From Euglena gracilis (taxonomy: Eukaryota): a DNA stretch of 64,000 bases. Positions 22,801 to 50,270 of this stretch are shown piece after piece. The first letter of the stretch is position 1, and each line of letters starts with the position of its first letter. The notes beneath the pieces are model-generated. The model saw only the letters and a list, made by a program, of their open reading frames with translations. It searched no databases and was not told the DNA's origin. A program made the translations under genes and the position numbers. The stretch is taken from NCBI GenBank assembly GCA_039621445.1, contig CP154954.1:13868387-13932386 (forward strand), written 5' to 3'.

Positions 22801-25800
22801 TACATACATACATAAATACATACATACATACATACATAAATACATACAGACATACATATATACACATACAGACAGACGACATACATACATACAGACATAC
22901 ATACATACATACACATACATACATACATACATACAGACAGAAATACATACATACATACATACATACATACATACATACATACATACATACATACATACAT
23001 ACATACATACACACATACACACATACATACGTACATACATACATACATACATACATACATACATACATACATACATACATACATACATACATACATACAT
23101 ACATACATACATACATACATACATACTTTTTTTTTTTTTTTTTGCCAGGCCAGGGAGGTCACGCAGCATGCACTGAGTGGCCCCTCCCCGTCCACCATGG
23201 CAGTGAGGCGACCAAGCCCCGCCTGCAGGGACATGGATGCCATCAACCCCTGCCAAGTGGGGCCCCAAGGATGGGTCCCCGCCGAGGCGGGCCCCGCGCC
23301 GGGGCCAGGGTTCCCCCCCCATACATGCCATGCGTGCTGGGTGGACTGCTCGGAGCAAGGCTGCCGCGGTGGGGCGAGCCGTTGGCCGAGGGTCCCCCAG
23401 CGCCGCGGATGGGATTGCCCCTCAGCCCCCCGGGGAACCATGATGAGCAGGGGGCAAAGTGGTGACTGGACAGAGGGTAACCAAGCCGCTCAAGAGAGCC
23501 GTCTTTGGAAGGGAATGAACAAGCAATGCCCACCATACCCAGGCTCACGGGGGCGTTGGTACCATGAGGGTTGTCGGCAACGAGAGTCATCGGACACCAA
23601 ACGCCCTCGCAAAAAATAGAGGGCTCCCATCAGCACATCATTATGCCAAGGCCAGACAACATCAAAGCGATATGAGAAGGAACAGAACAAGGTGACAGAC
23701 CGGACAGAGCTAGAAAAATGTGTATGGCTTTAATGTGAGTACAAATTAAAGTGCATGCCTTATCTCAGGAGAATTTTGATTACGGCATGATGTAGATCGC
23801 CGGGCCTCACGCGGGAAACCGTGGGGGGGGTGGAGGCGGAATCCTGGATGGATGATGTGTGCTCTTGCCATGGTTACGCTATCAGAATACCCCAGGCCTG
23901 GCGGTGTGCTGAGCATCGGAAAATATTGGTGGGGGGGTCCCCCATGATTGGCTCTGATGAACTCGATAGAGAGAACCTGACAAACATGTCTGTTTTCCCC
24001 AGGTGCTTGTTGCTCACTACAGGCGCACACAGGACCACGGTCCTGCAGGGCTACACGACCCCTGGCAAAAAATAAGGCCTAGGGGTGCAGGCTCCCCCCA
24101 TGGGACTGGTCACCCCCGATGTCAACCTGTGATCTCGCAGTGGCCCCCCTCATAGACGGTATTCGGACTGAAGGGCCATGCGGGGAGGGAAAGCTGGGTG
24201 GCTTCACAAGAGGGTGGGGGGGGGGGGGGGGAGAAAATGAAGAGGGGGGGGGAGGACACTGGAGGGAGGGGGGACAGTGCGGCCAGTATGATTGTCTGAT
24301 ATTACAGAGAGATGTGGTGGTAAAAGATTCCGAGCTGTGTGTACAAAATGATTGGTCAGACGTTTGAAGGGATAAAAATTAACGGCCTCCAGCCCCCAAG
24401 ACGGTTGTTGTATGCATCTTGTGTCATGGGTCATACAAACAAAATTTGATGTCACTATAAGATAACCTTTTAGGCAGGGTTTGGTCGCGCTTATGGATTG
24501 CCAAAAGGCAGGGGCATTTCTCAAATACAATCTGTGATACTGTGGCCAATAAATGTCCTAGATTTTTTATGGGAAAATAATGGAAAGAGATTTGCTGGTT
24601 ATCTCGCTAATTTTTGGCAGCCACAGCCTAAGACATAATGGGTTTTTGGGTGATGGGGAAATGCGAAGGTTGGAGGACATTGCCAGCATGCTGTCCAGTA
24701 GAACGCATAAATTGCCACTTGGAATATGACTTACCTCTGAACCTTTTCTTGTTGTAAAAGCACAGGAGGCAGGAGCTTGAACCCACAACGTAGCATGTGT
24801 ATCCCAGGCAGCCACCAGTATCTCCATTGATGTGGGTCGGCACCATTACCCCGTTAGCCCGGAGACAGGAAGCCCCTGCTGGCTCATGGGTGACGACACT
24901 GGATAATGATTTGACAACCAAAGAGAGTAGGGAAAACAACAATTAGCGAACTTGGAACTCGGTTGATGCCTGCAACAAAACCTCCAGAGAGTTGGGGATA
25001 GGCTCCACCTCTGCCATTCGCTCCAAATCCAACCCCCCCCAACGACACCCATTGGAGACATTGAGCCTGCCGTCAAAATGCAGCACCTTGACACAACTGT
25101 TGACACAACAGGCGAAACAGCTATGGGTTTCTGAATGATGGACCCTGAATGTCATTTGTCTTTGTTCTTGTGACTGGGGGTGTCTTAACATTGGCAGGAA
25201 ATATCACCTTTACACAGCTGGCTAGGCCATGGGCTATCAATTGATAGGCTAAAAGGGGCATACCCTTTGTGGGACGGCAAAGGCACCCAAATAAACTACT
25301 GAGACATTTTTTCTGTTCAAGATTTTTTGTGTCTTTGGATGAACTGAGAGCAGAGAGCACTAACCGCTGAAAATATTTGCTGGACTTTCGCGGTACAAAG
25401 AAAACACAGGAGATGTTTCCCCCGTCGACCTCGTGATCCTACCCAACACCTTGGATGCCTGAAAGTGGAAATTAGCTCCGCTCAGACATGCTCACTTTGG
25501 ACTCCCATTGAGAGGGTCTTGGCTTTGAAGAAAAAAAACCACTGTCTTTTGGAATGGTACAAAATGTGTGTAGCAATGACAACGAAAAGATATTGTTTGA
25601 TGTGTCATAAAAAAAAATGCTCATCGATTGACCATAGAGACCACTCATTGGCGAGCATCATAGCATGCAGTCAAACCGTTGGGTGCTGCAGACACAGAAA
25701 GCAACAAATAACCCACCTATTGATACTTTGGGGCACATCTGGGGCATCGGCCAGTGCGAACTTTATTGGCCAGCGTTTCCAAATACGAACTTGGATGGAA

Positions 25801-28800: not shown

Positions 28801-31800
28801 TTTAGCACTGCTAAAAAAAAATATCGAACTCTGATGTGCCGGATAAAAATATGAACACTGAATCACCAGACGGCATTGCATCCCAGACTGCCTCCGCCTT
28901 GACGGGTTCCGGCGGTGTGGGAAGGGAACCTGACAGGTAGGGGGAATTGGATGGGAAGCAGCGGGTGCTGAGAGGCACGCCACAAGCGTGGGGGGACACG
29001 GCCAGGGACGGGACCTGGACCTAAGACCTGGACCTGGGATCCGGGACCCCTGGAACTGGGTCCTGGGACCTGGACCTGGACCTCGACCTGGGATAGCCTG
29101 GGACACGGCCAGGGACGGGACCTGGACCTAGGACCTGGACCTGGGACCAGGGACCCCTGGAACTGGGTCCTGGGACCTGGACCTGGACCTGGGATCTGAG
29201 GCCCCTGGAACTGGGTCCTGGGACCTGCACCTCGACCTGGGACAGCCTGGGACACGGCCAGGGACGGGACCTGGACCTAGGGCCTGGACCTGGGATCCGG
29301 GACCCCTGGAACTGGGTCCTGGGACCTGGACCTGGACCTCGACCTGGGACAGCCAGGGACTTGGACCCGGCCAGGGAGAGGATCTAGAGATTTACTGGTG
29401 GGAGGGGTGGCGTCTGCCGAGCCAAAGACTGACTGAGTGGAACCGGAGGCGGGTGGCAGCTGATGCTGAGACAGGTACGGATGGATTGGAACTGGAGGAG
29501 AAGGGAGGCAGCGGATGCTGAGACAGGTACGGATGGATTGGAGCTGGAGGGGAGGGGAGGCAGCTGATGCTGAGACAGGTACAGATGGATTGGATTTGGA
29601 GGGGAGGCAACTGATGCTGAGACAGGTTCAGGAGGAGAGAGGGAAATGGATGCGTCAGGGTTGGACGAAGGGGCAGGGTCGGAAGAAAACGGATGCTGGA
29701 ACGAACACCGCAAAGGAAACAGACAGGGGAAACAAGTAAGGCTAAGGGATTGGGCTGGGGCAGGAGTGTGGGGAAATAAATATGAAGTGAGAGCGAAGGC
29801 GATAGAGGGTGCACCAGCGGCACTGACCAAACCATTCAGCTTGTTTGCAAACCATTTGGCTGACTGAAAAAATTCGCGAGCTATTTGGGGACGTTAATGT
29901 AGGGTTTAGTATTCTGTGGTACGAAAAGCTGGGATTGGAGGCATTGCACCCACAAATTTAACAATAAAAAATACCAGGCTGCTGCGGCTCAAACATTTTA
30001 GTTTGTCTGGGATAGAAGAAGGTTGGAGTGGGAAAAAAAACAGGCCATCTGCGAGGCAGGCCATGGGAGATGCAGTGCTGAAACGGCTGGAAACCAGTGT
30101 ACACTGACGTATGCATGGGATATATTCACCTCGGGTGAAATGGCCATCCCGTTTGTTGTCATTTTCCACGAAGAAAAGAACTTTCGCCAGGTAGAGGTTT
30201 TGGGAGCATGGCCCCGCCAGGTGCCGAGGTTAAAACAGAATGCCACACCAACTTCGAACTCGTGGACTGGTGGGCTCGTGGACTGGCTGTGGTAGACTGG
30301 CATTTTTTTGTTATAAAAAAATGGAGCTCAATCTTGCAGAGCATCATAATCACATACGAAATGAAAAAGCATCCAACCGAACGCCGGTAATTGGTTGGGC
30401 TTGAAAATGCCGCCATAGGAAAGGAATTAGGTCAGACTATGACTGCCCGTTAGCGACGGCCAGTGTTTGCTGAAAAGTTGACAACAAGCAAACTGGGTAG
30501 GCACAAATTCAATTGAGCGCACTGAAAAACGGGCAACAACCAACTTCCATAGGGCAGTTTCGAAGGGACAAAGCGTGAATACAAACATTGGTTGTGAGAA
30601 ATAGAAACTAAAAAAGGACAATAAGTGAGAAGGCATTGCGTTCCGATGGCATCCATCATTGTGGAGCGGGAAAAAATGTATACGAAGGGAAGAAAAAAAA
30701 ATGCGGGGGTTGTCGTACTCTTGGCCATCTTTCCTGACAGTTGGTAGGAAAGATGTTCACCACCCCGCTGACGGTGAAGCGGTACGACGTCGGGGTGGTC
30801 ATACATACATACATACATACATACATACATACATACATACATACATACATACATACATACATACATACATACATACATACATACATACATACATACATAC
30901 ATACATACATACATACATACATACATACATACATACATACATACATACATACATACATACATACATACATACATACATACATACATACATACATACATAC
31001 ATACATACATACATACATACACACATACATGCATGCATGCATGCATGCATGCATGCGTGCGTGCGTGCCTGCGTGCATGCCTGCGTGCGTGCATGCATGC
31101 ATGCATGCATGCATGCATGCGTATATACATATATACATATAAACATACAGACATACATACGTATGGGTATGTTTCTATGTTTACAAGGAATATACAAAAT
31201 TTTGGGTATTATGTCGTCATCATTGTATCGGCGGTGTCATATGAATTCAGTATTCTGATAGCGTTGATCACAGAACATGAATTATAATACAGTGCCATCA
31301 TATTGTATTCAGAATACACGATACATCGCTCAAAAAAATGCATATTTGCTTATATTTTTCTCGATGTTTTTTTTTGTTTTTGAAAACACTGCTTTCCGCC
31401 AGGCAATCCATTACCTGTAGCCAAGGGGATAAAAATGAGCCTAATTCCTCATTCTCACTGAAAAATTGGCATCAAATAGTTATCAAAGTTGCGCGGTTGG
31501 CTGCGGTCGGCTGCAGTCGGCTGCGGTCGGCAACCCACCCATGACAGTCCTGAAACCCGCGGTCGGCCGCGGTCGGCCGCGGTCGGCTGCGGTCGGCTGC
31601 GGTCAGATTTTGAGATTTTTCTGGCTCATCTGGCTCATGTTGTCACTTTTGGCCACTTTTGGCCATTTTAGGTCGCTTTTGTCACATTTTGGCCCATTAG
31701 TCACCATAATTCCCCCATTTTGACCTATTTTGACCTTTTTGGGCCACTTTTTGCCACTTTTTGTAATTTTGGGCCATTTTGTCGCTCTTGGGCCATTTTG

Positions 31801-34800
31801 GGCCATTTTTGACGATTCAAGCCATTTTCGACCTTTTTTGTTATTTTTGCCCATTTTTTGGTCTCTTTTTGGTCCAATTTGACCATTTTTGAGCATTTTG
31901 TGCCAGTTTGTTGCCAAAAGTGAACAAAAGCTGCTAAAGTGACCAAAATTGGCCAAAAGCAGGGCCATTTTGGGCCATTTTTGGCTTTTTTGGACCACTT
32001 TTGGCATTTTTTTTTGTTTTTGTCTGTTTTTGGTAACTTTTTGGTCCATTTTAATCATTTTTAACCATTTTTCGCCAGGTGCGGCTTCTGGAGTCGCAAA
32101 AACAGTGGCCAAAGCAGCCTTTCTTTGGCCTCTTTTGCCCACTTTTGGCCATTTTAACCATTTTTGGCCACTTTTAGGCCATATTTTAAGTCACGTTTGG
32201 CTGCTCTTGATGTGAAAAGCAACAAAAAGACGTTTAAAGTGGCCTGAAAGTGGCCAGAAGTGGGTAAAAATGGTCAACAGCAGAGAAAAGTGGGCAAAAG
32301 AGGCCAAAAGTGGTCAACAGAGGTCAAAGAAAAGCAAAAGCTGGCCAAAAGCAGCCAAAACACAGCAAAAAGTGGGCAAAAACAACAAAAGTGACCAAAA
32401 GAAAGTGATATATGCTCATTTATTGTTGGCCTGCCCCCCACCTACGGCCGACTATTTTGCCGACCGCAGCCGACCGCAGCCGACCGCAGCCGACCGCAGC
32501 CGACCGCAGCCGACCGCGACCGACCGCAGCCAACCGCGGGCTAAAATTTGGAATCTGTCATACGTGCTTGCCTGTAGCCCCCACCTACAAACCCCTGGAT
32601 TCAAAAGACATCTGGTCAGCGGAAAGCCGTATTTTATAAGTCAAGGGTTTGTCAAACCCCCAAAGCAATCCCAACCCCCCTCCAGATTTTGTCAGAATTG
32701 TGTTTTTTGATCATGTTCAGTCATGTAAAAATTGCCAGAACAATCAGTTTTTAGTGGGTTTCGGCAAAATGGCGTCCCCGGGATTTTCATTTTCTTCATG
32801 GTTCACGTCTTTTGGTTGGGGGGTTATGAGTGTGAGGGTTCCATTATCGTGCATGCATTCATGCAGTTTCACATGTGCAACATTCCGGGTATGTGGAATA
32901 TTCTGAACTTCAACCCCCCCCCCCTCTACCGGCCATCTGCCGGCAGAATCCTCTCTCGGGCCCTGGGGCCGGCTGCAGCTACCGCGTCAGCTACACCTGC
33001 CTGGGCGACGGGGTGGGCCAGCCCCCTCCTTGCACATCCTTGGCAGATTTTTGGAACGTTTTTGAATGGGTGACTGCGCTGTTAGTTTCAACGAAGGATG
33101 CATTTTTGATTTTATATATTTTTGTGGTCAAAGACCTTTTTCTGGATATTCTTTTCCAAAAATTGGAACTGGATCTTGGCCAGGGTTCGATATAAGGAGG
33201 GCGTACATGGTTTAGGTGGGGGGGTGTCCCCCCCACCCTCCTGGCCTGCAGGGGGGGTCCGGACCACCCCCCCCCCACCTGCAAGGGGGGTCCGGACCGA
33301 CCCTCGGGGGGTACCAGGGACCCCCCCCAAAAAAGGGTCAAATTTTTCCTCCGGCGCTTTGCGCCGAAAATTTTTTGCATTTTTGGCCATTTTTTGCCCA
33401 AAAAGTGCCCAAAATGGCACTTTTGGTCGTTTTGGGGGGTCAGAATTTTTCGGCCCGGCGCTTCGCGCCGGGCCGAAAATCGGTCGACCGCGCCACTGTT
33501 TAGGTGGGGGGGTGTCCCCCCCCCCACCCCCCCCCCCCCCCCCCCGCGGGGGGGGGGGTCCGGCCCCCCCCCCCCCCTCCTCTCCTTATATCGAACCCTG
33601 ATCTTGGCTCGGTGGCTTGCTTACAGAATTGTCGAAGGGATTGTTCCCCTCCCCTAAGGCCGGTTGTACGTCGTCCAACTAGCAGGTTTTTTTCAACCCT
33701 GTACCCATGCCCACCGATGAATTTCAATGCCTAGTCACCAAAGGGTGACTGGACGAAAGCAGCCTTGCTGAAGCTGCGTTTTTTTCCTTTATAATTTTCC
33801 ATTTTCCCATAAAAATGTAGTACATTTTGGTTTAGAATTTAGGGGGTCCACCTGCCTCATCCGGAAAAGGCGAATGGCAGCAAGGAAATTTGCACACACA
33901 AAATTTTTATTTTCAAATTCAATTCAAATTTTTACCAATTGGCCCAGTTTCGACCCATTTTGTCCTGAGTGCGAAAAATTTGACTTATCCTCTGCCCCAA
34001 TAGAGGAAACAGAAATACTGCACATTTTTCAAACCAAAAGAAATATTTTGAGAAGTAACAAATTCCCCCCCAAAAAAGAAGTGCGAGAAAGTTTCACTCC
34101 CGGTCAATTTCCCCCCCAATTTGATCAAATTTGACCAATTTGAGCCCGAAGTGAGGCATGATGTGCCCCCCTTGTCCAATGACTGGGATTGTCCAACAAC
34201 CTCCCCAGTCAGATGCGATCGTTTTGTGTGTGATGTCGGTTCGATCAGTGTAGGACAAATTGTTGATATAATTTGTTTCACAGAAGCTTGTTTTGTAAAT
34301 TTTTGGGGTGACAACCACTGAAAACACAAAAAGGGCACGGAAAAGGGCTGAATGCCCCCCCCCCCCCCAACCCCCCCAATGGACATGGGTAAAATGACTA
34401 AAATTGATGTAAGTGTGCAAGATTGCGACAAACGACCGAGATTTTGCTTAAAGTTGGCCAAAAATATGGGCAAAAGCTTGCTTAAAGATGCCAAAATTGG
34501 GCAAAAACCGCCCAAAATGGCCGTCTCTGGTCAATTCTCTTTGCTGATTTAGCCCCCCCCCCCCCTGTCTAACGGCCACCCCCCTGGTGGGAGACGAACA
34601 TTGGCTGTTTTTGCCACCACCCAAGAAAAACCTTCACCTTTCAGGTGGCAAATTGCCCAATAAAACGGCATCAAAATATTTGTGATGAAGTTTGTTATCG
34701 CCTCATTCACAGGAAGTTTCTGTTCTGGACATGGTCAAACATAGTGCCATAGTCGCCATGTGAATTTTAAAGATATTTCCTCCTGGCACATTCACCCATG

Positions 34801-37800
34801 TTGGTGTTGCCCAAGAAGGGCGCTGGCCGGCAACCTTTCCTCCCGTCTGGAAGGGCTGAACAAGAAGTTCGGGCTCAGGCTGCCCCATACCCCAACTCAA
34901 AAAAAGCTGGGTTGAGCAATTCCAAGCAGCCAGCAGGTCTAAAAACCAAGAGCTTGCATGCACCCCCCCGGTCGGAGGACACCTTTTCGGAGACTTTTCC
35001 AGATTTTTTTTGGCCTGGCGCCGAAAAATTTTGAACCCAAAATAGGCCAAAAATTGACCAGAATGTTATTTTTTGGCACTTTTTGGGCAGAAATTGGCCA
35101 AAATCGCCCAAAAAATTTCGGCGCAAAGCTCCGAAAGGAAAATTTGGCCATTTTGGGGGGCGTGGGGTACCATGCACCCCCCCCCCCCCGGTTGGAGGAC
35201 ACCCTTTTGGTCCCAGTCCCATGTCCAACGACCACCCACCGGTCGTTGAACAAAGGGGGGGGGGTAGTTTCTTCATCGGAAGCCAAGCTTGATGTTTACA
35301 AGTTGAGGTGTTCGGGATAGTATCCGATGATGCGGGGTGAAATGCACTGGTGGTTTCTGGCCTTCTGTTTCTCTCCCCACTCTGCTGTGCATCGCTCATC
35401 TATTTCCCTTGTCTAAGGTTATGATATTTTTGTATTTTTCAGGGTGAAGAACATTTTTCCAGGCATGGGGGAAGGGGGTAAATACGTGGCTCATTTCTCT
35501 GATTTCTGCAATTCCACACGCGGCAAGAAAAAGCCCATTGAAGGTAAAACAGAAAAAACCAGGAAAAAGTTTCAAGGACAAAGTGCATTTTCCATGCAGT
35601 CAGTTTTGATGCGGTTGAAGATGATAATTTAGCTTTTTTGCTCTTTGTAGGTTGACTTGCTGTTTTGGGAAGTTGGGAACACATATTCTACAGCTTTTCC
35701 GAAAATTTGGCATCGACAACCAAGTGCAAATCCATATGTGTTTTTATCATCCAAAAAATTGTTTGAAAACACGAGGGCAAAACACCCAGGAAAGGTTGTC
35801 GTTTTCCAGCCTGTGACGTTGTCATCTCGCCCGAGCGTTTTTGCCTGATCCAGCCCTCACATTCTCGAGGTTTTTACCTCGGTTTGTGCCCACTTGTCAG
35901 GAACCACCTTCTGTGGGGGGGGGTACGCATTGCCAATGCTCAATTCTCAGGGTTTTCCTTTTTTTTTTATCCCAGAATATCCGCTTCAGGGCGTCGCTCA
36001 AGCTGAAGTGAACCTCATCCTCCCCAAGCCGATTTTTTTCCGGTCCCGGACCCCCTCTCCTCCCCATCAACGAGGTTTTTAAATTATTTTCCAGCCATCC
36101 TTTGGGCGGCTGGACGGTAATGGATTTTTTGTTTTTTCTGGTGCAGAAATGGGCCAAAAATGGGCCAAAATCGGGCAGGGCAACATTTGGATGAAAAAAA
36201 TCAATCAACCTTTTTTTTTTTTGCATAATTGGCAGCTTTTTGGGGCGTTTTTGGAGTTTCGATTTTGGCACCCGGTTCGACACTCAGACTGGCCCAATTC
36301 GAGCCCCGGGACTCCTATGGGGGGGTCCTCTGAGCTCCCCCTCCCTGGGGTCACTCAGTGAGACCTGATTCCGCTCGAGGTCAGGTGCAGCGTCCGGAAA
36401 TGGGGTCAGGAGGCGGGGTCTTTGTTTGGAACTGGGTTGTCACTTGGACACCCTGTTCTTCATGTCAGTGCTGGGGGGGGGTCGGGGATGGTGGAGGTGG
36501 CGGGGGGGGGGGGGCGACACTCTCCCACGTGAATGTGGAGGGGCAGCCTGCCAGTAACCTACATTTGTGTCTCCCAGTCCACATTTGAGGCGTGTCCAGA
36601 GGATTTCCATTTCAGGCAGCTGGCAAAGGTGACGGTGCCCGGCAAGGCTGCCCAGGCGCCGAGACTCCGACAGAGTTCTCCCCACCCAATTTACCTCGGT
36701 ACAGCTATCAGGTCCGCTGGGCCATCGCCCCCACAAGGCCTTAACCTTCCAGTGGCAGTCATATAAGGTCAGGCTAACTCCAGTTTCTGATGATTTTGAA
36801 GGGCTCGAATTTGTATGCCTTTTTCAAGCGGCCAAGCCATTTTTTTGTACCTTCGAATCATCTTCATTCTTTCTGACGCAGAGGGCTTTGGCATTCCATT
36901 TGCTGCTTCTCAATTTGGTATTGTTGACGTGCTGTACAGTTGGAAGCCAACCCTTTCCCGGGGACTTCATGCAAGGTTTTGTTGTGCAGTGGCCTCTCAT
37001 ATTTAATGCCAACCTTCGGGGAGGAACCCCTGGAGAGTTTTTTAGAAATTTTGACCCAAAATTGAAACCTAAACTGGTTGCCCCTTCCGAGACCCAGGGG
37101 CACCCCGTATGGGGTGGGTGGTGAGTACCAACCCCTCCCTCCCCTTTGGGTCCTTATTATTAAAATATTAATTATATTAAACACATAATAGTGCATGTAT
37201 TAATTGGATAGGAATACACATAATGTGTTAATTATGAATTGATATATTAAATACACTAAACCTGGGGCAGTTTAAGATTTTATTTTCCATTTTGTTTGGC
37301 CCCTGCCAGGGAGGTTCTTTCCGTGTACGAGGTGCTATGCACGTACATGGGGTACGCCGCGGCACAAAGCCCAACGGCGTCCGAGCTTCCCGGGGCGGTC
37401 AGCATGGACGTGGAGGAAATGGAGCACCCAAGGGAGATTTACAAGCCTGTCAAGTCACCATCCAGGGATTTCAATGCTCGCTTTGCCATCCCCCGATCAC
37501 ATTCTTTTTAGCTTCAGCCTTCTCAGCCATTCACACATTTGTTCAAATTTGGGATATGTCACCTTAAAAAAACAATTTCAATATTGCTTCATGATGACCT
37601 CGGTTCACGTTCTTCTGTGGTCAAGCAGCTTTGGACAGTGTGCAAACGTTTTCACCGCCTTGAGAAATTGGCGCATTAAATGAAGACAACAGTGTTGAAA
37701 GTCATCGAAGGATTCAAAAGAGTAGGGAGGTGATACCATTTGGATGCGTACACCCAGCTAACAGATCGACCAACATCCAGATGAGCTTCTGATCCTCCCC

Positions 37801-40762
37801 GCCTTTTCAGACATTATGCTCACGTGGCAGGCGATGTGATTTATTCTGATGTTGGAGTAAAACACGATTCCTCCCTCCCTGGGCAGCTGGGCAGGAGGGA
37901 AACTGTCTTTCCCAACCACATGCAATCATGCACCATGCACCTTCGCAGGCATTTTTCAAGGAGCGACCACAATGCCTGGCCTCAAGTGCCATGCCAGGCA
38001 GGAGCCTGGAAGTCTACACTCCTGTCCACGGCCAGAGATAACCCCCACACAGTTTCCCTCCCCACCCTCTTGGACTTTGGGTTTCCAGGTCTTTGGGTAT
38101 GGGGCCAGGAAGCAGTTCTCAGGTGCGGCCTGAGATTTGTTCTTCTGGGTCCTGTCTGGACACCACCCCATCATTGGCCCACTGGTCATCCCCCCTGGGG
38201 GGTAAGGTGGTAGGGGGGGGGGTCCCTCTTGAGGCTCAATATGAATTTTTGGAGAGAAAAAATGGCCGTAACTCCGGCCAGGCGGGGAGTTGCGGGGAAA
38301 TCAAAATACTGTTAGATAGGGCATTTTAAGGTTTTCAATTTAGGTCTTTGACATTTCCTTTGATTTCCCACCATTTTTGAGAAATTTCAAAAACTTTACT
38401 CTTTGACCCCCCCCAAAAAAACGGCCGAAATCTTTGGCGACCGAAAACTGGAGGTAGGACGGGGTCCCCCACCCCCCCCCTCCTCCGAGATTCCCATACA
38501 AGCTGTCGTCACCCCTCCCTGCCCACCTTTGCGCAGCAGGGGGGTGCCTCCGGCCTGCCCCCAGGCAGGTGCCGTACCACTGGAGACGGGTGGACCGCAG
38601 TGCACTGCTGCGGTCCGCCGTCCGGTACGAGGAGGCGTACACCGCTGTGGCGGCTGGCGAACAGCCCGCTGTGCTGACTCCCCCGCTACTCACAGCCAGC
38701 TTTCCCAATGCTCAGTGGCAGTGGTGCTTCTGCCGGAAATTTTGGACCTCAGGGTCGGAAGACCAGGGACGCCTCATGTTGTATTTCCCGTTGCGCGTTG
38801 ATATTGGACACGCCGAAACAGGCAAACAAAACAATTAAAAATCATTTGTGTACCTGCCCCTTCTTTCCCCTGGGCAATTCCCTCCCTCTTGCATGAGGCC
38901 ACATCCTTTGTCTTTTTTTTATTATCTTTTTGCAATGGATGAGGGGCAAAAATGCCAGAAGAAAAGAATACACAAATGAAGCATGTTCTGTGTTTCTGTG
39001 TGTTTTGTGGAATCTGCATCCCGTCAATTTTCCTGAATTCGTGGAATTCTTGAAATTGGCCATGGATAAGTTTATATCTAATTTGAGGGGCTCTGTAAAG
39101 GGGGGAGGCAGTTGGATGTGATTCTTCCAGGGTATTTTAAACTCTTTCCTTCAACCAGATCTCCATCTCTCATATCCGACAATAGAGATTTGTCGTATGT
39201 CGGCGGGGAGGCAAAAAAATGTTTTTGTCAGACCCTGCTTGCAGAACTATGGGTAGCTTCGGAAAGACAGAGAATATTACTCCCCCCCCGCAAAAAACTG
39301 ACAGGGTGGGTCCCGAGCATCTCTTTAAGGTTTTGCAGACCCCCCTTCCCAAGGGGGTCTGCAGCAGCCAGCTCCAATTTTGGCCCAGCCCAGGTGCAAC
39401 AGCACCTCCCGGGGGGGGGGGGGTGCTGCTTGCCCTGCTATGTGAAGTGCCGAAATTTTTTTGGCAAAAAGTGTTCAAAATATGGCCCAGAATGGTGTTT
39501 TTGGGGGTGTTTTGGGCGTTTTAGGGGGGTTAGCCAGATGCTCATTTTTTCTCAAAACTGTGTTTCACAGGTCATTTTTGGGCAATTGTCCTATTTCGGC
39601 CCAGCCCGGCCCAGCTCAGGTCCAGCCGGGGTCCAGCCCATACCATTGCTTAACACCTCCCCCCCCCCCCCGGGGGGGGTTGGTGACCGACTGGTTTTTT
39701 TCAGAATGACTGACGGGTTTTCTGGCCAAGAGCCCCCCCGGGGGGTAGGCCCAAAATGAAAAAGTGGCTGACCTGGCGCCAGAAATTTTTTGGAGTTTTT
39801 TGAGACTTTTTGGCAATATTGCTTTGCCAACACGAGTGCATTCAAAAGTGGCTGATCCCCCCGGGGGGGGGGGGTAAAGTGACTGACTGGTTTTTTTTGG
39901 GGGGAAAAGTTACTGACTGGTTCTTTCAGAGTGGAAAGTGACCTCCCCTCACCCCTGGGGGGGGGTCGCTAAGCAATGGTATGGTCCAGCCCCCCAGCCC
40001 AAATTTCTAGCCCTAGCCCAGCAACCCCCCCCCCCCCCCCGGGGTCCTTAAGGAGATGCATGCTCCCGAGCAGCGGCCGGCGATAGTTCAAAATGGGCCG
40101 AGGTTGGCACAGTCCTCTGTACCGGTGTCCAGAATGCAGGGGAAATTGTTTGGGCGGAAATAGCCAATCTGGGAAATGCCCAAGGGCTTCCCCCCACCCC
40201 ATCCTTGGGTGGATAGCCTCCCGCCCCAACTCTCCTTCCCATTTTTCCCGGGGCAGTTTGTAAAAACGATCCTTTGATGCCGAAGGTGTGGGCACCATTG
40301 GGCACCACCACAGCACACCAGAGAAGTGCCATGGTGGGCGGGTCGTATACATATGGGCCCCACCCACTACGGGGAGGGGGACCAGAAGAAATTCTCTGCC
40401 CCCCCCCCCGAAGACAGGTTGTCCAAACCAACCTAGACCTGAACCAGGCAGAAAATATCCCGTTAGATTACGAAAAATCTGGTTCAGGATTTAGGGACCC
40501 AACACCTTATTCCTGGTTTCTGATCTCAAAACCAGGGGGGGGGGCAGACAAAATGGAGGTTCACAAGCGACTGCAGGGAAATACGGTGCAAGCGTAATTA
40601 GCACAGCACGCTGCCGGGGACCACCAACGGGCGCGGCAGCTGCTGGCAGCCAACCCACTGTTGGACCCGTCGGACAAGTCATGGGCCGCTCTGGCTGCCC
40701 AGCTGGTGCGCACGGAGGCTGGCCAGCCATGGGACGGCGTGTTCTACTTCACGGAGAAGTAA
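179..40762 (+). CDS. Membrane-bound class III adenylate cyclase (Cache-like extracellular region, TM, HAMP-like linker, cyclase, C-terminal helical tail); 5'-partial, 22 exons
   Basis: Exons 179-279, 3063-3109, 7891-8051, 8542-8568, 9435-9485, 10154-10268, 10868-10963, 12202-12260, 12526-12586, 13580-13612, 14193-14232, 14579-14692, 17405-17455, 18330-18407, 19267-19365, 32971-33015, 34832-34872, 36556-36649, 37311-37459, 37853-37880, 38563-38658 and 40619-40762 join into one open frame of about 575 aa. Cyclase motifs appear in order: [57 protein letters not shown]. The frame ends [10 protein letters not shown]. Some junctions are uncertain by 1-3 nt. Confidence 0.92.
887..2025. repeat. (TATG)n microsatellite with TACG/CATG variants
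   Basis: Direct reading; a second tract lies at about 2584-2970. Confidence 0.98.
3063..3109 (+). CDS. Exon 2 ([16 protein letters not shown])
   Basis: In frame with exon 3 (ASHG), giving a Cache-like G-x-x-IA-x-S-H segment. Both flanking introns have paired ends. Confidence 0.75.
3400..3830. repeat. Dispersed ccagcac(c/t)ttttt element family
   Basis: Related copy at about 63210-63590, with fragments at about 59440-59535 and 60715-60790. Confidence 0.65.
4237..7190. mobile_element. Two head-to-tail diverged copies of an approximately 1.5-kb non-coding element (Helentron/HINE-like by structure)
   Basis: gagcgaagcttaccc at 4237 and 5772; cccattaagagctcagcac at about 5670 and 7144; collinear interiors. 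An inverted fragment lies at about 38255-38400. Confidence 0.65.
7891..8051 (+). CDS. Exon 3 ([53 protein letters not shown])
   Basis: Strong GC3 bias. The upstream intron pairs CAGCG with CGCTG; the downstream intron pairs CAGGGGA with TCCCCTG. Confidence 0.85.
8542..8568 (+). CDS. Exon 4, 27 nt (QSWTAIPEM)
   Basis: Frame-compatible on both sides. The downstream intron pairs agccagggg-c-tgttctta with taagaaca-cccctggct. Confidence 0.75.
   Translation, partial: SPGRPFLK
9077..9397. mobile_element. Degenerate copy of the caggctgt MITE family inside intron 4
   Basis: Shares cgggtgccgaccccaccc...cctgcctgggcaggcactc...aaaaaacagcc with the 45098 and 47462 copies. No TSD is recognisable. Confidence 0.75.
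9435..9485 (+). CDS. Exon 5 ([18 protein letters not shown])
   Basis: Frame-compatible, with a beta-strand-like GQRYWV. The 3' edge is ambiguous because cagc is repeated at both junctions. Confidence 0.75.
10154..10268 (+). CDS. Exon 6 ([38 protein letters not shown])
   Basis: Coding-like codons; leads directly into the TM exon. Confidence 0.8.
10868..10963 (+). CDS. Exon 7, transmembrane helix and HAMP start ([32 protein letters not shown])
   Basis: About 22 hydrophobic residues followed by an amphipathic L-x-x-L helix. Confidence 0.85.
11003..11209. mobile_element. CAG...CTG MITE inside intron 7
   Basis: TIR caggcttctttt / aaaagaagcctg, flanked by cccac on both sides. Confidence 0.7.
12202..12260 (+). 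CDS. Exon 8, HAMP-like ([19 protein letters not shown])
   Basis: M-x-x-IA-x-L-x-F pattern typical of HAMP helix 1 and connector. Confidence 0.85.
12526..12586 (+). CDS. Exon 9, HAMP helix 2 ([21 protein letters not shown])
   Basis: E-L-x-x-x-x-x-SF-x-x-M-x-x-GL-x-x-F pattern, as seen before class III cyclase domains. Confidence 0.88.
13580..13612 (+). CDS. Exon 10 ([11 protein letters not shown]), cyclase transducer-like element
   Basis: K-F/Y-V-P-x-x-V-V motif found upstream of class III cyclase domains. Confidence 0.88.
14193..14232 (+). CDS. Exon 11 ([13 protein letters not shown])
   Basis: Frame-compatible linker. Both flanking introns fit NNN-CAG...CTG-N5. Confidence 0.75.
14579..14692 (+). 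CDS. Exon 12, cyclase catalytic start ([38 protein letters not shown])
   Basis: First metal-binding Asp in FTDIEGF. Confidence 0.95.
14898..15168. mobile_element. TA-terminated MITE
   Basis: TIR taccc-(C)n-tgtcgtacgac / gtcgtacgaca-(G)n-gggta, with internal cggtcacaggttgcagg repeats. Confidence 0.75.
16560..16870. repeat. Dispersed gtgactgactggttttt element family
   Basis: Related copies at about 39640-39960, 46530-46815 and 54000-54260. Confidence 0.7.
17405..17455 (+). CDS. Exon 13 ([17 protein letters not shown])
   Basis: ATP-specifying Lys and second metal-binding Asp (DKFIGD). Confidence 0.95.
18330..18407 (+). CDS. Exon 14 ([26 protein letters not shown])
   Basis: MA-x-WNAP...H...A..A.L.MQ cyclase segment. 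Confidence 0.93.
19267..19365 (+). CDS. Exon 15 ([33 protein letters not shown])
   Basis: R-x-GIHTG-x-x-x-VGN motif. Confidence 0.95.
20168..23126. repeat. Compound microsatellite complex (GGTA/TATG/CATA/CCTA/GGAT/CAGA)
   Basis: Direct reading; strand polarity switches several times. Confidence 0.97.
24287..26470 (+). pseudogene. Possible heavily decayed non-LTR retrotransposon (APE endonuclease plus RT) inside intron 15
   Basis: Motif-like fragments in the expected order, interrupted by stops and frameshifts: YDCLILQ/EMWW (24287), LTQGDH (about 26206) and IDD (26458). Confidence 0.35.
28993..29375. repeat. Minisatellite of approximately 110-130-bp units built from GGACCT hexamers
   Basis: gggacacggccagggacgggacctggaccta occurs three times. 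Confidence 0.9.
29455..29630. repeat. Tandem approximately 50-60-bp repeat (gatgctgagacaggt core, 4 copies)
   Basis: Direct reading. Confidence 0.85.
30800..31160. repeat. (CATA)n and (GCAT)n microsatellite
   Basis: Direct reading. Confidence 0.97.
31492..32538. mobile_element. Foldback-like element with decamer-repeat termini
   Basis: Left end cgcggttggctgcggtcgg and right end ccgaccgcagccaaccgcg, built from (cggctgcggt)n. The interior switches from ttttggcc-type to ggccaaaa-type degenerate repeats. Confidence 0.75.
32971..33015 (+). CDS. Exon 16 ([15 protein letters not shown])
   Basis: R-x-x-YT-x-x-GD-x-V motif with the substrate-specifying Thr. Follows a 13.6-kb intron. Confidence 0.93.
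33181..33600. mobile_element. hAT-like MITE, 420 bp
   Basis: 19-bp TIR cagggttcgatataaggag / ctccttatatcgaaccctg. Perfect 8-bp TSD atcttggc at 33173-33180 and 33601-33608. Confidence 0.92.
34832..34872 (+). CDS. Exon 17 ([14 protein letters not shown])
   Basis: Transition-state Asn and Arg (N-x-x-x-R). Confidence 0.95.
36556..36649 (+). CDS. Exon 18 ([31 protein letters not shown])
   Basis: I-x-VS-x-x-T and V-x-V-x-GK motifs. The upstream intron has a perfect 11-bp stem, caggctgcccc/ggggcagcctg. Confidence 0.93.
37311..37459 (+). CDS. Exon 19 ([50 protein letters not shown])
   Basis: VYEVL closes the cyclase domain. The 3' edge is uncertain. Confidence 0.8.
37853..37880 (+). CDS. Exon 20, tentative (GVKHDSSLP)
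   Basis: Inferred only from paired flanks (gggcag/ctgccc downstream, cagggat/attctg upstream) and frame continuity. Confidence 0.5.
38563..38658 (+). CDS. Exon 21 ([32 protein letters not shown])
   Basis: Coding-like, with a Y-x-x-A-x-x-x-x-x-x-G helical tail motif. The downstream intron pairs gctgtgctga with ttagcacagc. Confidence 0.85.
40619..40762 (+). CDS. Terminal exon 22 ([47 protein letters not shown])
   Basis: WDGV...EK* C-terminus resembling bacterial-type class IIIb cyclases. TAA at 40760-40762. Confidence 0.92.
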   Translation, partial: DHQRARQLLAANPLLDPSDKSWAALAAQLVRTEAGQPWDGVFYFTEK

Positions 40763-40854
40763 CGGAGCAGGCTTTATCTTGTCCCTGTCTGACAGCTTGA
40801 AGCTGTCACACCCGAGAACCTGCCAGGTGTCGTCTGGGAAATTGTCAGTGTCCC

Positions 40855-41082
40855 TAACCCCCCCCCCCAAATACCCTGGCGGGGTGCCAGGTTATTGGAA
40901 TCAACTTTTGGCCCTGTCCCCCCGCCAGGTTATTTGGGCCACCTTTTCAGCGCCGTAAAGGGATTTTGCCTAAAAAGGACCCCGCCAAGTTACTGGAACT
41001 ATCTTTTTTGCCCCTCCCCCCGCCAAGTTATTCGGCCCCCCGCCAGGAGTTGGGACCCCGCCAGGTTATTTGGGGGGTTTTA
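40855..41082. mobile_element. MITE just downstream of the cyclase stop codon
   Basis: TIR ccccccaaataccctggcggg / cccgccaggttatttgggggg, with internal cccgcca(g/a)gtta repeats. Confidence 0.65.
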
Positions 41083-44000
41083 GTTCCGACCGACTCATCA
41101 GGTAAAAGCAGACCTCTCGTTCGTGTGCATCAAGAAAAAATGATGAACCGTGTATATTTTTTGTATTTGGTGTGCATTGGTCCCTCCTCAACCTTTTCTC
41201 ACAGGAATGAAGCAAGTCCCTTTTTCTCCCATTTTGACCTTTTTGTTTTGCCTTTTTTTATTATTTTATTTTTGATGATTTCGGTCATTCTTGTCCACTG
41301 CTGTGCAGAATTTCAATTTCCCCCATTTCCATAACATTAAACTCTGTATCTGAGCGTCCACAGTGCGCCGATGCAGACTATGTAGCCCATTCGCCAATGT
41401 GCACGGCTATTCCCGCGACGCCGGGATACTCCGGGGAGTCAATAAGTGGCCGCAAAAGAAGCAGCTTGGGCGAAAGCACCCTTCGGTTCCCCCCCCACCC
41501 CGACTTCCCGGGCCATTTTTCTTTCCTACGGCCTGCACGAAGCATCCCCCCGCCCACACCATGCGTGCCTCACATGCGGGCCTCACAATGTCTTTGTGCT
41601 TCGCCCTCGGTGTCCCTTCCTCCCTTTTCCTTTCCTCGAGGGAGTGCGAACTTCCTGAGCACCCTACTTGATGCCGGAAAGGCCGGCCGAGCAATTTTCT
41701 CGTCCAATTTTCAAAAAAAATCCGACAATTTCCAGAGGAGTCCTTTTCAAAAAATAAGCGTTGTTGCGGGAAACTTCTCGCCCAGGTTTTTCCGAACTGC
41801 TGTCCGCGCCCGATTTTGTTCAGCCCAGCTGCTTTGACAGCGGCAAAAAATGATTTTGGGCTTTTTTTGCTCGCCCGAAAGATGGGGGAATGGGCCAGCT
41901 TGCTCTTCCCCCCGTTCTGAGTTGGAAATGAGGCTTTTAATGCGGTTTTGGCTGATCTTGGTCAAAAAAAAATCCCAACAGCCCAAAAATGGGCTTTGGG
42001 CCAAAAAAATCACTGGACAAAGTTTTCCACTCGCCAGCTGCTAGGATTTCCGCTTGACAAATTTGGACTGGGTTCATCGAGCCCCCCAGGGGGCTACTGC
42101 GGACCGTTGAATGAACAATGCATGTGAGTCAAAATCTGACCCATACCAGGGTGGTGCAACAGGCCCCCCTTGGCCATGGGGAGGAGTCGGTCCCAGGAGT
42201 TGGGGGGGGGGGAGGCGATCCCCCACCCACCACGGCACCCGCACAAAGAAATCCCCACGGCGCCCAAAGAAAATTTTGGCTGAAAAATCGGGGCCCCCGG
42301 AAACACAAGAAAGCCGATGGTTGGCACGCAGTCCACCACTCCACTGAAGCATGGAAGCGATCTGAGGCCTGGTTTCAGACCCCGAGGGTGCGACACTGAT
42401 GGCCTTCTCTGACGTTGTCGCCCTTTGGTGCGTGCATTCGCGTGTGTTTGTCTGTGTGTGTCGCGTGTTTCATTTTGGTGCGAAGGGGATTGAGTGCTGC
42501 TGTTGGACGCCTGATTGATATGACTGATAAAATGTGTGGGTTCCCTCATTTTGCAGTTCACGATGTGCTGGTGTATTGGTAAAAGGGCTGCGGGTGAATG
42601 CGACCCACATGGGAGATCTTTCGGTCTCCGTTGTGCACACCGAATAAACCCCGCCTGCGTAAATAACAGCATGTCGTTCTCACGCATGTTTTAGCTGGGT
42701 CTGACGACTCCCGAGATTGCTTGGGGTTTCCCTTTCGCTTCGGCCAACCACATCATGTTCCCAACACCGACTGTGCAAGGTTTCGCTTCTTTGGCAGCAG
42801 CTTTAGGTTGATGTGCCGCTCGGCAGGTCATCCCCCAGCATGTATTTTTCTCAGTGTAATGAATACGTACCGCATTTGTATGTTTTGGTTCCAATAAATT
42901 CAATTTTGCACACCCATCTCCCTTCCAGCATTCTCAGAGCACGAGGGAGGCCAATACCTCTCCTTTAGTGCCCCCACCGCACCCCGCCTCCAAATCACCC
43001 AGGCTGCCTCCTGTTGCTCCCCAACAGTACCTTTTGCCCAATTCAATTTCATCGTCCATCATTGCGAAAATCTCTTGGCTAGACAGATGTTGGTGTGCCA
43101 TCTTTTGGGCATTTATTGTCACGGTGCCCATCACACAATCATTTATTTATGCAGCATACGTTGCCCAATTTTTTTTTAGATGGTTTGAAGTGGGCAGGAA
43201 GCGGAAAACCGCTTCGTCCGACCCCCCAAATTTTTTAGCCTTTTTTTGGAAGAACCCCTTTTTGGGTAGTTTCTGACGATCGTTTGGGTTAGAATAATGG
43301 ATTTCTATAAGAGGCCGAAATGAGCGAAAGGCGGCATAAATTTTTAAGCCAAAGTAGAAATCGGCGGAAAGCACCCGAAATTTTCAGATGAAGCGAAAAA
43401 CACGCTTTGTCACTGCCTAGTTCTACTGCACTCCAAACTGAAGAAAAGCAAAACGATGCGAAATGGGGGTCTCCCGAGACCCGAACTGGTGGTCTCCCGA
43501 GACCCGAACTGGTGGTCTCCCGAGAACCGAAAGAGGAGGGAAGCCAAGATTGCCAAAAATTGCTTCCCTATTGAACGTCAACAAGCGGAAATGAGAAGCT
43601 GGAAGAGGATTGGAGAAGATTGACAGCAAACACCCCCAAATTTTGTAAAATGACCAGGAGGAAGCGGAAACACATTTTCCTAACGATTTAATTTTTATGA
43701 CCATGACTTAAACTCAACGGGAGAGGGAGGGCCATTGGGGACGGTTTCTGGCCTCACCGTGATGGGATTGAAGTACTTTTGTGGGTGTAATAATGAGCTG
43801 AGATGCAGCATCATGGATGAGGCGGGTCCAAGTGGTTCAGAGAGTGCTCCCCCTTCCCCTGAGACGAACATGTGGTGCAGTACCCAGCCTCAGATGCCAA
43901 GGTTTGATCCCAGGAAGCGGAAAGCCGCCTCTTCGCATTGCAGGGTATAGGTTGCAGGGTATAGGCCACATAGGGTATAGGGTACAGGCCACAGGTTGGA

Positions 44001-45097
44001 GAAGTTGCCTCGTCGTCCATAATGAAGCGGAAACCTGCTACCTCGGTGTTTTTTCAACATTACCTGAAACGTCCCGGAATCAATGTGATTCCTGTGGAGG
44101 TTGCAGAGCAGTTCCTGTAGCAGCAGACAGGGACGGAAGTGGCTTGGTGTGTACTGCAGAGGGGTGTGGTGATGGTAGGTTTTGAACAAGATTGTGTTAG
44201 GGGAGCAGCACAGAGGAAATCAAGCATCTGGAAAAAAGATTCAGAGGAGAGTAGTCCACACATCTCGGAGGTGGCGTTGGGCATCACCTGTGGCAATCCA
44301 TCCAGAGGACATCTTTGGTGTTCGCAGGCATATGCCACACCAAAAGGGGTCACGGGGAGAGAAAACCGTTGGATGGGGACCCAGGAGGGGAAGGAAGATG
44401 GTGGTTTCAAGCGAGAGAAGGCAGGTGTTATCCCTTCTGGTACCAGAAACAGAAAACAAGGCCAAGTGAAGGCTGCAATTGGGCCTGGACACTTTGTCGC
44501 AATCAAAAAAAACTGGACCATAAAGCCTTTAAAAGCCCCCTCTCCAAACCTGTGAAATCCATCGAAACCTGCCAAAATATCCAGCTGTGGAAAATTCTGT
44601 TTCAAAACCTGCCCTCAAGTTCCTGCTTCCACGGCCAAAGCGCACGCAGGTGGGCCTTTCCTGTGTGGTTTCGTCCACTTGCTCTTCCCGGGCCGTGTTT
44701 CAAGCCCACCTCCACCTGTTACGTAACAGAAGGTGGACCCTGGAGGGCTGTCTTCGTCCTCCAAGGCCCGCCGATGGCTCTCGGCAGGACATATCCTGGT
44801 GAACTGAACACCTACCATGCTCCCAGGAGGCTCACAATGACACATAGGCAGCTTCATCAGGCACCCACAACCCCGTCCTGCAGTCTCCACCGCCTCAAGA
44901 AAGGAAGGAACAACTTCCTAAAGTGGAAGCACTAACCCGATTCCTCCTCCACAGGTGGGAAGTGTGATTCCACTTCCTCTCTGACGAAAAACTGGTTTCC
45001 TCTTCATCCCAGCTTTTGTGTGAAGTTCTTATCAGCTTCCATTTGCGCCATAATCCCTGGTCAATTTGGTTCTGTCGCACCACTCCCCCCCCTGCAC

Positions 45098-45346
45098 CAG
45101 GCTGTTTTTTAGTCGGGTGCCGACCCCACCCTGGGGGGGGGCCTGCCTGGGCAGGCACTCCAAGGCACTCCCGATCCGACCCCCCCCCCCCGGGGGGGTT
45201 GGGCACACGGCCAAAAGTGCCCCAGCATAGACCCAGCGCCGAAGGCGCTGGGGAGCCAAAAAAATGGCCTATTTTCAGTGCCTGGGCAGGCACCCCAAGG
45301 CACTCCGGACCCCCCCCCCCCAGGGGGTTGGTAAAAAACAGCCTTG
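45098..45346. mobile_element. hAT-like MITE (same family), longer copy
   Basis: Same 5' end as the 47462 copy (caggctgttttttagtcgggtgccgacccc). TSD ccctgcac / ccccgcac (7 of 8 match). Confidence 0.82.
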
Positions 45347-47461: not shown

Positions 47462-47574
47462 CAGGCTGTTTTTTAGTCGGGTGCCGACCCCACCCCGGGG
47501 GGGGGGGGTGCCTGCCTGGGCAGGCACTCACAGGCACTCCGGACCCCCCCGGGGTTGGTAAAAAAAACAGCCTG
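47462..47574. mobile_element. hAT-like MITE (caggctgtttttt family), short copy
   Basis: TIR caggctgtttttt / aaaaaacagcctg. TSD ccataaac / ccacaaac (7 of 8 match). Confidence 0.85.

Positions 47575-49789: not shown

Positions 49790-49868
<79 letters not shown>

Positions 49869-50223: not shown

Positions 50224-50270
<47 letters not shown>

Follow-up and report, generated by a model that had tools for sequence, protein, structure and literature searches.

A probable hAT-like MITE within a nonconventional intron of Euglena gracilis has ends and an 8-bp TSD that fit the nonconventional splicing rule

Since the 1990s it has been an open question where the nonconventional introns of euglenids come from and why their geometry is so odd. 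The locus described here lies in a window of 64,000 nucleotides, the whole stretch of Euglena gracilis DNA that was analysed, and it raises the question whether a transposable element can arrive with ends that the nonconventional splicing rule would accept as they stand. We consider it probable (about 0.8) that the element in question, M1, is a recent hAT-like MITE insertion in a nonconventional intron and that its ends, taken together with its 8-bp TSD, fit that rule. The general idea is an older one. The original prediction had mentioned that a transposon origin of such introns had been suggested in general terms, and a MITE origin has indeed been in print since 2014 (PMC3935182, PMC4770533, PMC6221363, PMC11282704, PMC12501133). 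The 2014 paper stated that no transposable elements had yet been identified in euglenid genomes (PMC3935182), and the later papers name only ‘MITE-like’ sources. A literature search of main texts found no explicit link of nonconventional introns to hAT or to the sum 3 + 5 = 8-bp TSD; the words ‘hAT’ and ‘TSD’ had 0 occurrences in PMC12501133, and ‘hAT’ had 0 in PMC11282704. M1 makes the old idea of a transposon origin concretely testable without proving it, and concrete candidate families whose TIRs and TSDs are intact are present in the window.

M1 is a 420-bp element at 33181-33600 that reads CAG at its beginning and CTG at its end. It was delimited by sequence, repeat search and RNA folding, and no strand was assigned to it. 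The inverted-repeat search gave a left TIR, CAGGGTTCGATATAAGGAG, at 33181-33199 on the + strand and a right TIR, CTCCTTATATCGAACCCTG, at 33582-33600 on the − strand, the two 19-nt arms being perfect reverse complements of each other (19/19, 100%). The element is bordered on both sides by ATCTTGGC, at 33173-33180 and at 33601-33608, the two copies being identical at 8/8 positions. The CAG...CTG element with a 19-bp terminal stem and an 8-bp TSD that had been predicted for this locus was confirmed. Between the arms, M1 consists of palindromic modules of G/C runs and an A/T-rich core; it has no coding capacity and no transposase ORF, and the sole ORFs across it traverse poly-C/G tracts. In the RNA fold (−262 kcal/mol, z = −8.4), the terminal stem closes the whole element, and the 19-bp stem closes both the MFE and the centroid folds. 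TIRs directly flanked by the TSD, small size and the lack of a transposase ORF assign M1 to the MITEs. No match to Rfam families or tRNAs was obtained in the window, and M1 is neither an RNA gene of a known kind nor a SINE derived from a tRNA.

The combination of TIR and TSD in M1 is far beyond chance, its expectation being near zero. The expected count of the 19-mer, with up to 3 mismatches, is 0.03, and two copies were reached in 0 of 100 shuffles. The TSD comparison took in 1051 registers of inverted repeats 10 bp or longer in the window; the 8-bp flanks agreed at 7/8 or better in four of them, two of which were at 8/8. Control flanks taken at five shifts gave 1, 0, 2, 0 and 0 registers with at least 7/8 agreement, and 40 Markov-3 simulated windows gave nine matches of at least 7/8 in all and none at 8/8. 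The TIR 19-mer occurs twice in the 64-kb window, both times as one of M1's own arms, and the M1 family has one copy there. No M1 copy was found in the metagenome contigs scanned with the 19-nt TIR. The two loci in these contigs that matched it were rejected as chance, each being a single match before an ATG in prokaryote-like sequence. In the DNA run, the summed contig depth was very high over parts of M1, a value which does not represent copy number, and the core of the element is common to other repeats.

M1 is located on the sense strand of a transcribed gene, inside an RNA-verified nonconventional intron (33016-34831, + strand, 1816 nt), which reads GGC-CAG...CTG-GCCGGC followed by A and has spacers of 3/6. 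The RNA evidence consists of runs guessed to be RNA and of raw-read RNA runs, and it includes an unambiguous joint 33015>34832 (one X15 contig, three X21 reads and three X22 reads). The upstream exon (32971-33015, + strand) has an open frame; loose ends at 32970, together with a CTG-N5 acceptor, suggest the position of its 5′ edge. The downstream exon (34832-34873, + strand), which is bounded by the joints 33015>34832 and 34873>36557, also has an open frame, and a single open frame is kept across the exons to a stop at 40760-40762. Four exons of the host gene were compared with Pfam and gave nothing above threshold. Exons farther upstream were looked for and not located, so that the number 16 given to the host intron in the original prediction is provisional.

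The euglenid nonconventional code has been formulated as 5′-N3CDG-/-CH′GN5-6 followed by R (PMC12501133). As laid out in that paper, the 5′ spacer is strictly 3 nt and the 3′ spacer is 5 nt with one additional nucleotide tolerated; further demands are CAG/CTG, base pairing behind this motif and an exon that starts with a purine. Fully synthetic introns which follow these rules are spliced (PMC12501133). Judged by its sequence, M1 with its TSD conforms to every sequence requirement of the code as given there (PMC12501133). The predicted nested intron (33178-33605, + strand, 428 nt) reads GGC-CAG...CTG-ATCTT followed by G, the pairing is provided by the 19-bp perfect stem seen in both sequence and fold, and transcription in pre-mRNA follows from the position of M1 within an intron seen spliced in RNA. 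Cuts at 33177/33178 and 33605/33606 take out 428 nt, i.e. 420 + 8, leave one ATCTTGGC and have t/g (pyrimidine/purine) at both junctions, which bears out the claim that a cut of 33178-33605 removes the element plus one TSD. The predicted borders are GG..TT (33178-79 / 33604-05) and not the spliceosomal GT/GC-AG sites. Like the euglenid nonconventional introns, M1 with its TSD has a 5′ spacer of 3 nt followed by CAG, a long paired stem, CTG with a 3′ spacer of 5 nt and then a purine, Y/R at both junctions and a sense transcript. Unlike them, it is nested in another intron instead of separating two exons, its removal from RNA is a prediction, and it has a perfect 8-bp direct repeat, whereas the verified introns of the gene are without one. 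TIR/TSD-like features have been drawn for nonconventional introns according to the legend of Fig. 3D in PMC11282704.

These properties are best accounted for if M1 is a non-autonomous cut-and-paste DNA transposon which recently entered the sequence ...GGATCTTGGCTCGG... through a staggered 8-bp cut, the target being a nonconventional intron of an expressed euglenid gene on the + strand. The rule of 3 nt before CAG and 5 nt after CTG, then a purine, would remove M1 with exactly one TSD, and such removal would restore the pre-insertion RNA. The geometry of removal should be valid in either orientation because the direct repeat is symmetric around the inverted repeat. We infer that M1 may be excised from RNA in this manner; as M1 sits in an intron, there would be no selection for its removal. 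The joint 33177>33606 is absent among the 15 of 597 joints listed, an absence that is uninformative rather than negative, since unique coverage of the host intron of about 0.1x (0.04-0.1x in raw RNA runs) leaves the joint test without power. Similarly, there was no DNA joint of the empty site among the 15 of 597 joints listed, and this is not readable as a negative either.

The offsets of 3 and 5 nt had been put forward as the rule which the introns of this gene follow. This holds for five of the eight RNA-verified introns, which have spacers of 3/5 directly or after sliding (one of the five with CAC for CAG), and it does not hold for the remaining ones: the host intron has 3/6, one intron has 2/6, and one carries AAG/CTT with 3/3. 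The sum of the two spacers is 8 in six of the eight. When the flanks of the seven verified introns having a CAG/CTG anchor (CAC/CTG in one) were compared, 2, 1, 1, 3, 3, 5 and 0 of 8 positions matched, which is the chance level, and no TSD remnants were found in them. No sequence common to the eight verified introns and the elements M1-M5 was found within the window.

The window has further TIR elements with 8-bp TSDs. A second family, M2, has three copies in the window with differing flanks. The copy M2b (47462-47574, 113 bp) has CAG...CTG ends, the TIR CAGGCTGTTTTTT and the flanks CCATAAAC and CCACAAAC, which agree at 7/8 positions. In the copy M2a (45098-45346, 249 bp), the flanks CCCTGCAC and CCCCGCAC also agree at 7/8 (by eye), and the right end is CCTTG with one additional T. 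The alignment of the M2 copies showed that their homology starts at CAG and not 3 nt earlier. A third family is represented by M3 (39639-39983, 345 bp) with the TIR CATACCATTGCTTA and the exact 8-bp TSD GTCCAGCC, which sits within the RNA-verified intron 38659-40618. The termini of M3 are CAT...ATG and the published code would reject such ends, in spite of the 8/8 TSD, so that intron readiness does not extend to every 8-bp-TSD element here.

It is plausible, if unproven, that M1-like elements seed new nonconventional introns. The broader proposal that CAG...CTG hAT-like MITE families with 8-bp TSDs (M1, M2) are living progenitors of euglenid nonconventional introns is a tentative one, and we put the odds somewhat against it. 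According to this proposal, the 3-nt/5-nt spacer rule would owe its existence to the fact that 3 + 5 is the length of the TSD, the non-spliceosomal machinery would carry out an RNA-level ‘precise excision’ restoring the target for either orientation of insertion, and M1 would leave the host intron as a nested intron. The splicing code itself might then be an RNA-level transposon-excision system, a view to which the other CAG...CTG elements with 8-bp TSDs in the window and a published intron with 8-nt repeats lend circumstantial support. MITE progenitors would explain the explosive spread of the introns (71.8% of introns in E. agilis), the high frequency of direct repeats at intron junctions, and the 8-nt repeats seen in the most recent intron known. 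The quantitative prediction is that the direct repeats are exactly 8 nt long, abut CAG/CTG and are split 3+5. If it is true, nonconventional introns would belong to an introner-type system with a non-spliceosomal excision machinery, and the numbers 3 and 5 in the code would be explained.

The published intron just mentioned is that of the gapC gene of E. agilis, a strain-specific nonconventional intron of recent gain whose junctions carry direct repeats of eight nucleotides (PMC4770533, 2016). Like M1, this intron 4, reported for the strain ACOI 323 only, is a nonconventional-type element bordered by eight-nucleotide direct repeats; unlike M1, it lies in an exon and is spliced (PMC4770533). 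The same paper interprets the 8-nt repeats as a scar of double-strand-break repair (PMC4770533), which is in agreement with the possibility that M1 is an ordinary intronic MITE, that CAG...CTG and the 8-bp TSD are generic hAT features without any causal link to the 3/5 geometry, and that nonconventional introns arise otherwise, e.g. by double-strand-break repair. We regard such a coincidence as rather unlikely, although several of the results fit it. The verified introns of the gene have neither TSD remnants nor similarity to the MITE families, their spacer sum differs from 8 in two cases out of eight (the host intron, with its 3/6, included), M3 combines an 8-bp TSD with ends other than CAG/CTG, and no spliced M1 copy appeared among the listed joints at the low host-intron depth given above. 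On the other hand, three independent matches would be needed jointly, namely the CAG/CTG motif, spacers that add up to the length of the TSD, and the paired stem, and there are three CAG...CTG elements of two families with 8-bp TSDs (7/8 in the M2 copies) in a single 64-kb window. Moreover, the direct repeats of the only new nonconventional intron on record measure exactly 8 nt (PMC4770533), and direct repeats were reported at the junctions of 69.1% of nonconventional and 84.4% of all introns in E. agilis (PMC12501133).

The proposed origin of nonconventional introns from MITEs has a parallel in the introner elements of Micromonas, Aureococcus, dinoflagellates and Fritillaria, which are MITE-like DNA transposons turned introns via TSD-derived splice sites. 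Introners resemble M1 in that they combine TIR and TSD, the TSD supplies a part of the splice signal, and excision restores the coding sequence, as described in PMC11282704. They differ from M1 in having spliceosomal GT/GC-AG or variant sites and 3-5-nt TSDs, whereas a non-spliceosomal CAG/CTG stem rule and an 8-bp TSD split 3+5 are proposed for M1.

The classical hAT pattern consists of short CAG-initial TIRs and 8-bp TSDs. The short hAT TIRs start with YARNG, and the hAT target consensus is nTnnnnAn (T at position 2, A at position 7). The beginning of M1, CAGGG (33181-33185), fits the YARNG motif. The target ATCTTGGC has T at position 2 and G at position 7, so that the hAT target preference is only half matched; A is found at position 7 in the left flanks of all three M2 copies. 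M1 shares with the Ac/Ds-type non-autonomous hAT MITEs the 8-bp TSD, short perfect TIRs starting with CAGGG, small size and the lack of an ORF, and it differs from them in the half-matched target preference and in that there was no hAT transposase among the six window ORFs tested. Both the 8-bp TSD and the terminal CAGGG agree with the hAT-like label proposed originally, and we infer the superfamily from these features since no transposase was seen.

It is unlikely that M1, while a genuine MITE with an 8-bp TSD, belongs to a superfamily other than hAT (Merlin, P or Mutator), the classical hAT pattern of CAG-initial short TIRs and 8-bp TSDs arguing against it. Merlin is the only DNA transposon superfamily which the literature search found reported for Euglena gracilis, no description of hAT in Euglena was found in the same search, and the six long window ORFs tested against Pfam gave no transposase match. 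Two Merlin families, each having 8-bp TSDs, were described in E. gracilis, and they resemble M1 in being TIR elements of the same organism group (PMC8101967). Merlin TIRs, however, have a conserved terminal 5′-GG-3′ (PMC8101967), whereas M1 begins with CA, both M1 and M2 starting with CAGG and M3 with CATA.

It is highly improbable that M1 is a mobile nonconventional intron spread via RNA (excised circle, reverse splicing and reverse transcription): although nonconventional introns were reported to be released as full-length circles (PMC11282704, PMC12621601) and M1 bears the full intron signature, reverse splicing would insert the spacers without target duplication, an exact 8-bp direct repeat abutting perfect TIRs is what a staggered cut of DNA leaves behind, and the point at which the M2 homology starts, at CAG and not 3 nt before it, also speaks against such a route.

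A minor observation concerns the exon upstream of the host intron of M1. The reads running off at 32970 have a 30-nt consensus which is absent from the window, whole or in parts, and these reads may come from a paralogue.

The 420-bp element M1, a candidate MITE at 33181–33600 found both in the sequence and by a repeat finder, has ends of 19 nt each that are perfectly complementary (CAGGGTTCGATATAAGGAG ... CTCCTTATATCGAACCCTG), and it is flanked on both sides (33173–33180 and 33601–33608) by the same 8 bases, ATCTTGGC. The terminal stem of 19 bp, the CAG...CTG ends and the 8-bp TSD of the original prediction were therefore confirmed. The 19-mer occurs at just two sites in the window, the two ends of M1; with up to 3 mismatches, 0.03 occurrences are expected, and 2 matches were reached in none of 100 shuffles. 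A scan for TSDs covered all registers of the window's inverted repeats that are 10 bp or longer (n = 1051); the 8-bp flanks agreed in at least 7 of 8 positions in 4 registers, compared with 1, 0, 2, 0 and 0 in controls with a shifted right flank. Forty Markov-3 simulated windows yielded 9 matches of at least 7/8 in sum and none at 8/8, while the real window has 2 at 8/8. The proposed excision arithmetic is also correct, as the removal of 33178–33605 (428 nt) leaves one ATCTTGGC with t|g at both junctions. We conclude that M1, which lies inside a nonconventional intron, is a genuine hAT-like MITE of recent insertion. Two metagenome matches to the M1 TIR were rejected as M1 copies and classified as chance matches.

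Four sequencing runs were mapped on 31130–48400: a set of contigs guessed to derive from RNA, two RNA runs of raw reads and a DNA run. Eight introns on the + strand were defined by a few raw reads together with a spliced contig, which had a depth of 144.7 and differed by one letter in the piece shown. Counting the spacers as nt before CAG and nt after CTG, these are the host intron of M1 at 33016–34831 (3/6) and the introns 34874–36556 (2/6), 36650–37310 (3/5), 37459–37982 (4/4, slidable to 3/5), 38024–38562 (3/5, with CAC replacing CAG), 38659–40618 (3/5), 40765–42376 (3/5) and 42480–42927 (3/3, with AAG/CTT instead of CAG/CTG). The −3/+5 rule which had been ascribed to the introns of this gene thus holds, directly or by sliding, for 5/8 of them, and the 3/6, 2/6 and 3/3 introns depart from it. 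The spacer sum is 8 in 6/8, and all eight have a purine as first base of the following exon if the slidable intron is set to 3/5. The spliced exons form a single open frame to the stop at 40760–40762, which indicates that an expressed gene is represented here by its 3′ part and that the last two introns lie in its 3′ UTR. Of the raw RNA reads, 41 and 44 leave the window sequence at 32970 and continue into upstream sequence that is absent from the 64-kb window, and no more than 3 reads in each run cross the junction 33015>34832. It is likely that a paralogue with higher expression shares the exon in which the reads end at 32970.

The nonconventional splicing code 5′-N3CDG-/-CH′GN5-6|R was derived from knock-in mutagenesis: the 3-nt 5′ spacer is obligatory, the 3′ spacer may exceed its 5 nt by one, the sequence behind the motif has to pair and wholly synthetic introns obeying the code are spliced (PMC12501133). 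The spacer counts of the host gene and the purine at its exon starts agree with this code. M1 with its TSD reads GGC-CAG...(19-bp stem)...CTG-ATCTT|G, which agrees with every item of the code, and the terminal stem closes the entire element in the predicted RNA fold. The reverse strand of the locus reads GAT-CAG...CTG-GCCAA|G; since a direct repeat surrounds an inverted repeat, the code should also be matched in the opposite orientation of transcription. The fit of M1 to the code is exact and no coordinate artefact. The host intron itself reads GGC-CAG...CTG-GCCGGC|A, and M1 is located 162 nt inside it. The predicted joint 33172–33177 > 33601–33606 is absent among the 15 of 597 joints listed, a search rendered powerless by the raw-read depth of 0.04–0.1 over the unique intron part (33434–34009) and by the 3 reads per run at the exon junction.

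The classical hAT pattern combines an 8-bp TSD with short TIRs that start with CAGGG; the hAT TIR motif is YARNG and the target preference nTnnnnAn. The hAT label proposed for M1 is supported by its TSD and its CAGGG start, whereas the target preference is half matched by ATCTTGGC (T present, A absent) and no transposase was found by Pfam among six long ORFs of the window; Pfam gave no match for these ORFs or for the exons of the host gene. Merlin families were the only DNA transposons reported for Euglena gracilis in the literature search, and they are described with 8-bp TSDs and TIRs terminating in GG (PMC8101967). M1 shares the TSD length with Merlin, but the GG ends are missing from M1 and from the two further TIR families, M2 and M3. 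Owing to the hAT-type TSD and TIR ends and the missing GG ends, we designate M1 as hAT-like, with no proven hAT membership.

The M2 family (CAG...CTG ends, TIR CAGGCTGTTTTTT) has three copies in the window, at 47462–47574 (M2b; flanks CCATAAAC/CCACAAAC, 7/8), at 45098–45346 (M2a; flanks CCCTGCAC/CCCCGCAC, 7/8 by eye allowing one extra T in the right end) and, degenerate, at 9077 to about 9398. Homology among the copies starts at CAG, and AC directly precedes CAG in all three left flanks, which have the A of the hAT target preference at position 7 (3/3). The DNA run at 47559–47560 in M2b gave a summed contig depth of ~91,000 compared with ~20–80 in single-copy bins, summed depth not being equal to copy number. 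The data suggest that M2 is very abundant. M3 (39639–39983, 345 bp, TIR CATACCATTGCTTA, exact 8-bp TSD GTCCAGCC) lies inside the verified intron 38659–40618 and has a truncated relative at 16565 to about 16878; with its CAT...ATG ends, it would not fit the published code. TIR elements duplicating 8 bp are common in the window, and two families have CAG...CTG ends. Nested insertions of the M1 and M3 sort show a route by which nonconventional introns lengthen.

That nonconventional introns stem from MITEs was proposed in 2014 (PMC3935182) and restated later (PMC4770533; PMC6221363; PMC11282704; PMC12621601; PMC12501133), and the intron-generator idea is an extension of this published hypothesis. 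The Fig. 3D legend of a 2024 review assigns CAG/CTG at +4 to +6 and −8 to −6 to the TIR and the junction repeats to TSDs (PMC11282704), so that the 3+5 geometry is implicit there. No mention of hAT, or of a spacer sum equal to the TSD length, was found in the main texts searched ('hAT' has 0 occurrences in those of PMC12501133 and PMC11282704). What this analysis adds to the hypothesis is a set of specific candidate families and a precise numerical prediction. For a new nonconventional intron confined to one strain, direct repeats of eight nucleotides were reported and ascribed to double-strand-break repair (PMC4770533); junction direct repeats were reported in 84.4% of introns, and such introns were set aside (PMC12501133). 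Several results count against the intron-generator idea. In the seven CAG/CTG-anchored introns (one CAC/CTG) of the host gene, the left and right 8-nt flanks agree in 2, 1, 1, 3, 3, 5 and 0 of 8 positions, which is the chance level, and the ends of the verified introns show no similarity to M1–M5. The Pfam result for transposases and the two chance matches in the metagenome weigh in the same direction. The full strong form, in which CAG...CTG MITEs with 8-bp TSDs are the progenitors of euglenid nonconventional introns, is plausible and unproven, with a probability of roughly 0.35.

The A/T-rich core of M1 (33306–33454; motifs TTTTGGCC / GCGCCGAAAA) is 74% identical to 35020–35182 on the other strand, 1.5 kb downstream, and resembles repeats elsewhere in the window (also 31640–32180 and 34440–34520); many contigs of the DNA run link it to other contexts. 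The core is a pervasive genomic repeat, either captured by M1 or the material from which M1 was built. A slightly diverged haplotype (SNPs at 33091, 33134 and 33642) is represented in the 2018 DNA run by single-copy contigs (depth 21.3 both) that end within ~5 nt of the M1 borders (about 33175 and about 33603), not ~30 nt inside M1. This could reflect a presence/absence polymorphism or mere assembly breakage at a repeat.

At 11003–11209, a 207-bp CAG...CTG element (TIR CAGGCTTCTTTT) is bordered by the 5-bp direct repeat CCCAC; it may represent either a MITE whose TSD has decayed or a nonconventional intron. CAGGCT is common to the termini at 11003, 34876, 40768, 45098 and 47462. A 45-bp perfect inverted repeat with telomere-like GGTTAG units (GGTTAGGGTTAGGGTTAGGACCGGC...) spans 326 bp end to end at 55069–55394. 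Tetranucleotide arrays of (TGTA)n, (GTAT)n, (ACAT)n, (CATA)n and (TTAT)n, up to ~1.1 kb long, occupy 886–2969, 20043–23126, 30800–31120 and 49762–50285, and a large inverted repeat (20043–21400) whose arms measure 72 bp or more is built around such arrays.
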